Shown in pieces: positions 2,143-52,378 of a stretch of DNA of 64,000 bases; position 1 is the stretch's first letter; each line of letters starts with the position of its first letter. The position numbers and the translations under genes are program-made. The notes beneath the pieces were generated by a model that saw only the letters and a program-made list of their open reading frames with translations, did no database searches and was not told the DNA's origin. Source of the stretch: Mobula birostris (lineage: Eukaryota); the NCBI RefSeq assembly GCF_030028105.1, contig NC_092377.1, forward strand, positions 62,402,569 through 62,466,568, read 5' to 3'.

Positions 2143-3685
2143 TCTCTTTCAGCTTCTCCCATTTTCTCCAAACCCAAGGGCATCTGCATGGGCCCCAGCT
2201 AAGCCTGCCTTTTTGCCGGCTATGTGAACAGTCTATGTTCCAAGCCTACATTGGGAGTGCCCCCCAACCCTTTTTGTACTACATCGACTACTGCATTGGT
2301 GCTGCTTCCTGCATCCATGCTGCACTCGTGAATTTCATCCTTTGCTTCCAACTTCCAAATTGCCCTCAAATTTACTTGATTTATCTTGGACACCTCTCGC
2401 TCCTTTCTCAATCTCTGGAGACAGGTAGTCTACTGCTATTTTTATGTACCTATTGACTCTCACAGCTATCTTGACTATCCTGTACCTCTGTCACTTGTAA
2501 AAATGCTATTCCCTTTTATCAGTTCCTCTGTCTCCACTGCATCTGCTCTCAGGATGCGGTGTTCTGTTCAAGAACAGCTGAGATGTCCTCCTTCCTCAAA
2601 CAGCAGGGTTTCCCTTCCTCTACAATTGATGCTGCCCTCACCCCATCTGCTCAATTACCCTAACACTTGCCCTCACCCTATCTTCCTGCCACCATAAAGG
2701 GGTAGAGTTGCCCTTGTCCTCACCTACCACCCACGGGCTTCCACACCCAGCACATCACTCTCCGTAATTTCTGCCATCTACAACAGGATTCTACCACGCA
2801 TTGGGGTTTCCCTCATCCCTCTCTCTGCTTTCATAGGGATTGCCCTCTATGTAGCTCCCTGTCGACTCTCTCTCCCCACTGAACTCCCTCCTGGCCCTTC
2901 CACATGTAATTGAGACAAGCGCTACAACCATCCCTACACCTCCTCCCTCACCATCATTCAGGCTCTCAAACAGACACTTCAGCTGTGTCTTCTACTGTAT
3001 CTGATGTTCCTGCTACGGCCTCCTCTACATCGGTGAGACCAATATAGATTGGGGGACTGCTTCATTGAGCACCTTTGCTCTGTACACCACAAAAGGTGTG
3101 TTTTCTTGGTGGTCATCCATTTTAATTTTACTTCCCACTGATCCTCTACCGTCACGATGAGGCCGCTCTCAGTTTGAAGGAACAACACTTCATATTCCAT
3201 CTGGGTAGCCACCCGACGCCATGAACATAATTTTTTTTCTAACCTGATAGTTTCTCCCCCTCTCCTTTCTCTTTTTCCTTCCCCATTCTGCTCCCCTCTT
3301 ACCCCTGTCCTTTTCCTCATTTGCCCATCACCTCCCTCTGGTGACCTCCTCCTCCTCTTTCTCCCACGGTCTACTTTCCTCTCCTATCAGCTTCCTTTTT
3401 CTTCAGTGCTTTACCTCTTCCACCTATCACCTCCCAGCTTCTCACTCCATCGCCCCTCCTCCACCCCAACCACCTTCTCTCTCACCTATCACTCGCCACT
3501 TTCCCTCCCTCCACTTTCTTACTCTGGCTTCTTCCCCCCTTCCTTTCCAGTACTGATGAAGGGTCTCAGCCTGAAGCATCAAATATACATTCCTTTCCAT
3601 AGCTGCTGCCTGATTTGCTGAGTTCCTCCAGCATTTTGTGTGCTTTGCGATGCACTTCCAGCATCTGCAGAATCTCTTGTGTTCA
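2143..3685 (+). mobile_element. Degenerate Penelope-like element (RT, GIY-YIG and pLTR tail)
   Basis: MGPS.ACLF, FLYYIDYCIG RT motifs; GLLYIGET...EHL GIY-YIG remnant; CT-rich region; CTGATGAAGGGTCTC tail. Confidence 0.9.
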
Positions 3686-3733
3686 TGCATTAATTTGTGT
3701 AAGAAAGTTGGTAAAAAAAAAGTAAATATTTAC

Positions 3734-3985
3734 CTTTTTCACAAAATCTTTTTCACAAAGGTCCTGTAGAACACCCAGACATACCGTGCAGGTTCGAACA
3801 CCAACATCAGGATCCAAAAGTTCATTTGATGACAGTTTTGTAGCTCCATTTTTGTCAGAATCCATATCATTATTTTCACAATCCTCCAATCTGATTTTCT
3901 TACAAAGTGGTTGATCATTTTCTATTCGTTCAGACTTGCATTCATCATCATCATTCAAGAATTTGCGGAGTTCAGTGAACAATTC
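3734..3985 (-). CDS. PUS10: PUS10 coding exon 2 (tRNA pseudouridine synthase 10); the gene continues beyond the left window edge
   Basis: AG/GT-flanked 252-nt phase-0 exon ELFTELRKFL...KKIRL...CTVCLGVLQDLCEKDFVKK; matches recalled human PUS10 ELLNELQKFL...CNVCLGILQEFCEKDFIKK. Confidence 0.95.
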
Positions 3986-51712: not shown

Positions 51713-51782
51713 TGAATTACTGTTAACATGTCATTGTCATGTGTAAATTGGATGTAACAAAATTACCACACTATGTGGATCA

Positions 51783-52378
51783 ATGGTGACCCAAGTGCAG
51801 CGCACAGACTTAGTGTCCGGTGAGACGAAGGAGAATTCCAGCCAGGAAGCACCCCACAGAGCTGAAGATCTCTCCGCACTTGAGTCGCCTCAGCACCGAA
51901 CAAAAAACCTAGTGAGTTCCTCTTCGGCTACCCCAATCCATTCGTCAAGGAAAGACAGGATCAGATGGCCTAGATCGTCAGACAACGTCGCCTGGATGCA
52001 GTTTGATGATGATCTAGCCCTGTGGAGATCAGCTGCAGAGGTTTCCCAGCCAAACCAGCATGGCGGTTGTTGTCAGATCTGGGCCTGGACGAAAGGAGCA
52101 AAAAACAAGCAGCTCGTAGGATGGGGGAAGAGGCAGAACGAGCTCCTTGTTGGATTTAGAGTAGGCGAGAGGAGGGGAGCTGGAAGCCAGGAGCAGACGG
52201 GCAGTGATTTGGCCACCACTGCCGGCCCACCAACTGGAGAGTGTCGTGGTTAAGGGTCGAAACACTCAGTGAAAGTTGGGAACCACCTGACGACATCTGC
52301 TCCTGACTGAAGGCTAAGGTTACCTTATAAGGTAACTGGAGAATGCACCCTAACAGGTGTATGTAACAAGTAACAAGT
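51783..52378 (+). mobile_element. Internally deleted Hero/R2-like (RLE-clade) non-LTR retrotransposon
   Basis: N-terminal piece GETKENSSQEAPHRA...RIRWPRSSDNVAWMQFDDDL fused to C-terminal piece PVEISCRGFPA..AWRLLSDLG...EEAERAPCWI*SRR...W; structured 3' UTR; (TAACAAG)n tail. Confidence 0.75.
52188..52305 (+). ncRNA. Hammerhead-ribozyme-like motif in permuted, pseudoknotted order
   Basis: GUC 52243-52245, GAAA 52259-52262, CUGACGA 52287-52293; perfect 6-bp stems I and III plus four more helices. Confidence 0.55.

Follow-up and report, generated by a model that had tools for sequence, protein, structure and literature searches.

HERO-type retrotransposons of this animal genome, and distant relatives from marine samples, carry at their 3' end a hammerhead-type RNA fold in which one of the core blocks, block C, is split by a four-way helical junction, and their genomic copies are arranged head to tail. 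The order of the core blocks in this fold is already known from another hammerhead class; for the split of block C, and for a hammerhead in a HERO element, we found no description. Taken together, the sequence analyses lead us to favour, with a probability of roughly 60%, a model in which the fold cuts tandem transcripts of the element and the resulting RNA circles template reverse transcription.

Layout of the motif

The window, which is the whole 64 kb stretch of DNA analysed, contains the motif once. All six helices and the core (CUGACGA, GAAA, and GUC) were re-read in the sequence and lie where an earlier note on this DNA had placed them. That note had also put the motif at the 3' end of a Hero-type element, and we find there an internally deleted copy of a HERO-clade retrotransposon. 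The features of the motif and of the sequence downstream are as follows.

52188..52199, + strand: closing stem P0, 5' strand, overlapping the last ORF codons
52200..52223, + strand: hairpin between P0 and stem II (strands 52200-06/52217-23), holding the stop codon and forming the fourth arm of the junction
52224..52228, + strand: stem II, 5' strand, with G10.1 at 52224; the detached half of block C
52230..52235, + strand: stem I-II interaction helix, 5' strand, CCAACT
52239..52251, + strand: block S, with a strand of stem III, GUC at 52243-45, and a strand of stem I at 52246-51
52254..52267, + strand: block G, with the 3' strand of stem II, GAAA at 52259-62, and a strand of stem III
52274..52279, + strand: interaction helix, 3' strand, AGTTGG
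52281..52293, + strand: first half of block C, with a strand of stem I and CUGACGA
52294..52305, + strand: closing stem P0, 3' strand, beginning immediately past A9
52318..52337, + strand: downstream hairpin 1, folded in five of five close relatives with changed sequence
52343..52362, + strand: downstream hairpin 2, adjoining the fixed 3' end
52363..52377, + strand: fixed 3' end common to all copies, GTAACAAG, which ends at 52370, plus one slipped repeat

Stem III pairs GAGTG with CACTC and is extended by a U16.1-A15.1 pair, stem I pairs GTGGTT with AACCAC, and stem II pairs GGCCC with GGGTC, including one G-U pair. P0 (52188-99/52294-305) contains a single C.A mismatch, and C and T are about equally frequent at this position among genomic copies (21 and 24, respectively). 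The hammerhead core CUGANGA, GAAA, and NUH is present in the window and its relatives. The window reads CTGACGA at 52287-93, most copies of the family read CTGATGA instead, and the cleavage triplets are GUC, GUU, and GUA. Single departures from GAAA occur in decayed copies of the L072 type and in loci L075, L080, and L082. The predicted cut site, from the GUC triplet, is 3' of C52245.

In the family of the window and its closest relatives, the P0 strand and the hairpin overlap the last six ORF codons and the stop codon (52187-52207), so the passage of a ribosome during translation would unfold the junction. The motif sits entirely within the UTR in L077, L081, and L087-L091.

A hammerhead core with an interrupted block C

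The core blocks run in the order S, G, C (52239-51, 52254-67, and 52281-93), which is, as the earlier note had recognized, not a circular permutation of hammerhead types I-III. The same note knew of no description of the topology. The S-G-C order with two pseudoknots is, however, known as the active type SGC (Eckert et al. 2023, PMC10085705), and what is new is the splitting of block C by a four-way junction. The pairing of CCAACT with AGTTGG, read before as an extension of stem III, can equally be the stem I-II interaction helix of type SGC (PMC10085705); in the window, this helix (52230-35/52274-79) ties the far sides of stems I and II together. Type-SGC ribozymes cleave in vitro at 0.007-0.19 per min, and the examples in the consulted part of that paper come from metatranscriptomes, with none from the genome of a known organism (PMC10085705).

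The HERO fold shares with type SGC the block order, the short linker between the stem I and stem II strands, the helix at the far ends, and the full core. The two differ in the position of one strand: in HERO, the stem II strand precedes block S and is connected to A9 only via the closing stem and the hairpin. A9 is thus not joined directly to position 10.1 of stem II, and the strand that follows A9 forms P0. The available text of PMC10085705 works on the assumption that CUGANGA runs straight into the following stem II strand, and gives six permutations as possible; the HERO topology falls outside these six. Since block C is interrupted, we describe the fold as working like type SGC and do not file it under that type.

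In 13 of 15 lineages, stem II cannot begin with the strand after A9; L072 allows it, and L080 is mis-anchored. An unsplit SGC reading was rejected, except for L072, which can also form an unsplit stem II. The A9/10.1 step is a four-way helical junction, and we infer that the junction preserves the stacking of stem II on the core. The gaps between P0, hairpin, and stem II are 0/0/0 in the window, L073, L077, L081, and L091, and 1/0/1 in L087-L090.

It is very improbable that the core forms between two RNA molecules instead of as an intramolecular double pseudoknot. The topology is complex, and small Penelope-associated hammerheads reportedly cleave as dimers, but the gap-free abutment of P0, hairpin, and stem II suits a junction within one molecule, and the same block order works in single SGC constructs (PMC10085705).

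In the literature searched, which lies outside subscription journals and Repbase Reports, we found no tested precedent for a helix inserted after A9, and no HERO hammerhead, split block C, or circular HERO RNA. The last three are likewise unmentioned in the consulted parts of PMC3088659, PMC4640811, and PMC7650587, and in those of bioRxiv 2026.07.22.740005 and 2022.07.19.500677.

Conservation, covariation, and detection of the fold

A metagenome scan yielded 33 loci, and the motif follows the ORF in 17 of them (10 recognized by a first descriptor, 9 by a second with one mis-parsed, and the rest by eye). These 17 loci represent 13 distinct lineages with 37-78% protein identity over the longer matches, and one more relative, L155, was found later. 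The relatives build the same helices and core from different sequence. Among the 16 loci without the motif, L078 is cut inside it, and most others are cut short or rearranged. L083-L086, L093, and L094 retain downstream sequence with the motif absent, so part of the clade does without it. Members of this motif-less sub-clade (L084 and L093 behind the ORF, L086, and L094) have a structured 3' region that contains several hairpins and matches nothing in Rfam, and L094 contains tandem repeats of ~110 nt at 1060-1384.

The earlier note had proposed covariation of all six helices as a check, and an alignment of 11 sequences shows the fold to be conserved and covarying. Over 39 pairs, 93.6% of the cells are paired, and two-sided changes occur in 26 pairs spread over all six helices. 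None of 500 shuffles reaches the observed pairing or covariation, with a shuffle that ignores relatedness and a structure derived from one of the aligned sequences, and slid controls pair at 33-42%. Stems I, II, and III, all of which abut the core, show two-sided changes in 3/5, 2/5, and 3/5 pairs, respectively. The interaction helix is 88.7% paired, with two-sided change in two pairs, and has new sequence in L087-L091 and L155. CUGANGA, GAAA, and GUH stay fixed while every helix changes. The most distant lineages (L077 and L087-L091) lie outside the alignment and were tested by descriptor, which they pass. L155 keeps stems II, III, and I, the interaction helix, the hairpin, and the core in new sequence, and its P0 has only ~3 bp, judged by eye. 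We are highly confident that this is a real, conserved, hammerhead-type fold, and it is likely to be self-cleaving.

A custom descriptor of the whole topology, another check proposed before, has a single match in the two strands of the 64 kb window taken together, exactly at the motif, and none in 60 Mb of first-order Markov sequence. The stricter first descriptor has no match in 8 Mb; it also misses the window copy because of the P0 mismatch. The second descriptor mis-parsed L072 and missed L071, L074/L076, and L096. Standard descriptors were expected to miss the motif, and Rfam indeed finds no hammerhead, or any other ribozyme, in the window region and 15 loci, because the connectivity is outside the known hammerhead permutations. 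The nested minimum free energy fold of the motif is unremarkable (z -1.69), since nested folding cannot show pseudoknots.

The host element

The window copy fuses positions 381-625 of a 3.7 kb natural copy to positions 3382-3734 through an internal deletion, and no target-site duplication is evident at it by eye. It consists of two pieces.

51773..52017, + strand: HERO copy, 5' piece; N-terminal ORF fragment, corresponding to positions 381-625 of the natural copy
52018..52370, + strand: HERO copy, 3' piece; end of the RLE domain, stop codon TGA at 52205-52207, 3' UTR, and fixed 3' end

The motif terminates a genomic repeat in the 4.0 Gb genome, as seen in the best 40 of 1413 candidate matches, which were scored. 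Longer copies contain a single ORF with an N-terminal zinc finger, a reverse transcriptase (RT), a CCHC knuckle, and a C-terminal restriction-like endonuclease (RLE). The RT was assigned by Pfam PF00078 on homologues, and the PD..D/E..K endonuclease motif was found by eye. Compared by eye with the consulted rows of the supplementary alignment of PMC5678591, the RT of L040 has motifs in common with five HERO-group rows, and its motifs are not those of the R2, NeSL, Utopia, CRE, and Dong rows. These matches support the Hero-type identity proposed earlier. A Penelope-like element was rejected, as the C-terminal domain is of the RLE type and the RT is HERO-like, not a telomerase-like RT with GIY-YIG. 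A retrozyme, which is small and non-coding, was rejected as well, as the unit is 3.7 kb with a long ORF.

Across lineages, the elements are 3.7-4.4 kb in size and protein-coding, and named protein relatives come from bony fish, lancelets, and bivalves. Searches of viral contigs with a single protein or an alignment found no HERO relatives. In 6 of 8 ORFs (L073, L077, L087, L090, L091, and L036), the first methionine lies past the start of the N-terminal zinc finger, which suggests a non-AUG translation start.

Head-to-tail copies

The head-to-tail architecture of the genomic copies is a new finding that the earlier note had missed, and it points to function. When 10 copies were fetched by the N-terminal piece, three had their own 3' end directly before the 5' start. 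Selection by nothing but the first 123 nt then gave 30 loci (of 40 scored), and 27 of them run upstream into their own 3' end (26 of 29 without the locus of the query). The junctions, 26 found by BLAST and one 13-nt case by eye, comprise 16 that are letter-identical save one T/C allele and 11 with substitutions, and none contains an indel. The upstream repeats range from ~13 to 2251 nt in length. The same junction is found in the relatives L071, L077, L082, and L089/L090, with 6 nt of it in L091 and a suggestive junction in L073. Assembled contigs from four sequencing runs gave no information on the cleavage site, and one such contig spans a head-to-tail junction by at least 31 bases on each side. 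These junctions indicate that the 5' start is not the end of the template.

The predicted cleavage site is crossed in 17 of the 27 upstream repeats (16 of 26 without the locus of the query), and none begins there. All 30 copies picked by sequence 3' of the cleavage site cross it with no insertion or deletion. Since copies are scarless across this site, the template is continuous there. The simplest account of such a template would be a circle closed at the cleavage site.

A different explanation of the junctions is that new copies insert site-specifically before the 5' starts of older ones, with a ribozyme whose sole task, as in R2, is to release the 5' end of the RNA. Utopia elements occasionally occur in tandem, and targeted arrays are known in other non-LTR elements (PMC4640811, consulted in part). 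Repeated self-targeting under a Poisson model would give stacked fragments in ~74% of cases, yet none is found in 26 occupied sites, and 29 of the 30 3' ends of copies picked 3' of the site lie in non-element DNA. At non-CpG sites, the two 3' ends of one locus have minor alleles in common in 14 of 39 informative cases (36%; permuted mean 0.12, p ~0.0005), and sharing at CpG sites is not significant (12/79, p 0.086). This comparison covers 16 of 23 loci; the others are four loci that have no second 3' end, L114, which is rearranged, and L032 and L035, which are unpaired. The upstream fragments also have a smaller median length, 276 nt, than ordinary truncated copies, with 638 nt (p 0.023, for 17 fragments of at least 109 nt vs 28 copies), as a second, strand-displacing round would give. 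No copy begins at the cut site. We rejected self-targeting on the missing stacks, the allele sharing, and the fragment lengths, and consider it hardly credible.

Two loci have longer arrangements: in L118 (8942-9040), the 3' end continues for 99 nt past the junction, and in L114 (1276-2032), a 3' end is followed by 439 nt of 5' end and then by a 3' end again.

Cut and uncut templates

A cleavage site that is scarless and free of piled-up ends fits an RNA that is never cut equally well, and uncut RNA with very efficient and precise template jumps would leave the same genomic record. In such a scheme, the template is either a linear RNA that spans the element between its 5' start and its fixed 3' end, copied with end-to-end jumps, or a read-through from a tandem donor, and the role of the fold is to signal protein binding or to act as a slow off-switch by which some of the RNA is destroyed. 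Several observations agree with it. Short slipped repeats are found at the 3' ends, as is typical when priming occurs at an RNA end; the stop codon lies within the fold in the closest lineages; and SGC ribozymes are slow (0.007-0.19 per min, PMC10085705). Against it, jumps would be needed in ~90% of full-length events, yet the 27 junctions contain no indels, and the hammerhead core (CUGANGA, GAAA, and GUH) is fixed while all helices change. With tandem-donor read-through alone, the upstream repeat would lose length from one generation to the next, yet lineages at 37-78% protein identity retain it. We consider an uncut template unlikely.

Slightly less likely still is that the RNA is cut and the monomer persists as a nicked circle held by the fold, with reverse transcription starting internally and jumping the nick. 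Four helices bridge the cut, all of the genomic patterns would be explained, and R2 reverse transcriptase reportedly copies across non-continuous templates. Every copy longer than 125 nt must then cross the nick, yet 30 of 30 have no insertion or deletion there. Template jumps usually add untemplated bases.

Proposed replication cycle

The closed circle remains our preferred reading, and we consider a circular-RNA life cycle of HERO elements more likely than not. A partial tandem with at least ~185 nt of upstream repeat would give a transcript that contains two ribozymes and is cleaved at the GUC site of each. In ~13 of 30 loci, the upstream repeat is long enough for two whole ribozymes, and these loci could therefore yield a unit-length monomer. 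In the folded RNA, P0 would stack on the hairpin, so that stem II could still stack on the A9/G12 side of the core. P0, stem II, the interaction helix, and stem III would hold the two cut ends together and thereby promote their ligation, either by the ribozyme itself or by an RtcB-type ligase of the host; animal retrozyme hammerheads self-ligate weakly, at 1-3% (PMC7229834, consulted in part).

Genomic copies share one fixed 3' end point, and we infer that 52363..52377 is the start site of reverse transcription. The HERO protein would prime internally at this point, ~125 nt past the cut site. Reverse transcription would then circle the 3.7 kb RNA and tail off in a second round, by which the partial tandem would be regenerated in every generation. 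The uncapped RNA would be translated from the non-AUG start. Precedents for the steps are found in the consulted parts of the literature on retrozymes (PMC7229834), Penelope elements (PMC11167929), and the VS system (PMC6765202).

The full picture, in which HERO is an autonomous LINE clade with a coding circle of ~4 kb, a seventh hammerhead topology that clamps the cut ends for ligation, and an RLE-type RT that primes internally, has in our judgement about an even chance of being correct.

Comparison with known systems

The following comparisons are limited to the consulted parts of the cited papers. Penelope-like elements with hammerheads in their pLTRs (Frangieh et al. 2024, PMC11167929; PMC6765202) are likewise autonomous and form tandem or partial-tandem copies with a hammerhead in the repeated end, and partial-tandem copies of this kind are what we find for HERO. 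An internal start of reverse transcription was shown in vitro for one Penelope element and is proposed here for HERO (PMC11167929). Penelope elements have a telomerase-like RT, GIY-YIG, and type I or minimal hammerheads (PMC11167929), whereas HERO elements have a HERO RT, a restriction-like endonuclease, and the split SGC fold.

Animal non-LTR retrozymes (Cervera and de la Pena 2020, PMC7229834) have tandem-transcript cleavage, circular RNA, and tandem cDNA copies, whereas the putative HERO circle is deduced from genomic junctions. Retrozymes are non-coding, 170-400 nt in length, and carry type I hammerheads (PMC7229834), in contrast to the protein-coding HERO elements of 3.7-4.4 kb. R2, L1Tc, and other LINEs with 5' HDV-like ribozymes resemble HERO as RLE or LINE elements with a self-cleaving RNA and cap-independent translation (PMC6765202), properties that in HERO are predicted. 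Their ribozyme is HDV-like, lies in the 5' UTR, and frees the 5' end (PMC6765202), whereas that of HERO is hammerhead-type, lies in the 3' UTR, and would yield a circle. In the Neurospora VS system, cleavage and ligation produce a circular RNA that is thought to template a reverse transcriptase; VS is a mitochondrial satellite with an unrelated ribozyme and does not integrate into chromosomes by target priming (PMC6765202).

The HERO motif adds a hammerhead connectivity beyond the six thought possible and shows that eukaryotic genomes contain a non-circularly permuted hammerhead. Provided that the protein relatives have the motif too, it would be common in fish, lancelets, and bivalves. If the circle model is true, an R2-related LINE clade has a Penelope-like life cycle, and the rule that target-primed reverse transcription needs a free RNA 3' end is challenged. 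For RNA-based gene insertion, a natural RLE protein able to write circular RNA into a genome would be of interest, as would a possibly self-ligating ribozyme for the production of circular RNA.

Additional features of HERO elements

The two hairpins at 52318-52362, both preserved in close relatives despite changes in sequence, may be the signal that determines where reverse transcription begins. Many protein relatives lie on contigs of 3.6-4.1 kb, about one unit, as expected from a collapsed tandem or a circle. HERO-like sequence is also present on short contigs in three prokaryote genome records (L154-L156), one of which (L155) is informative; it is likely host contamination. A purine-rich motif that recurs within the 5' UTR is conserved between lineages (L035 1220-1330; the 5' ends of L071, L073, and L082; L077 2500-2580) and is possibly a translation or promoter signal.
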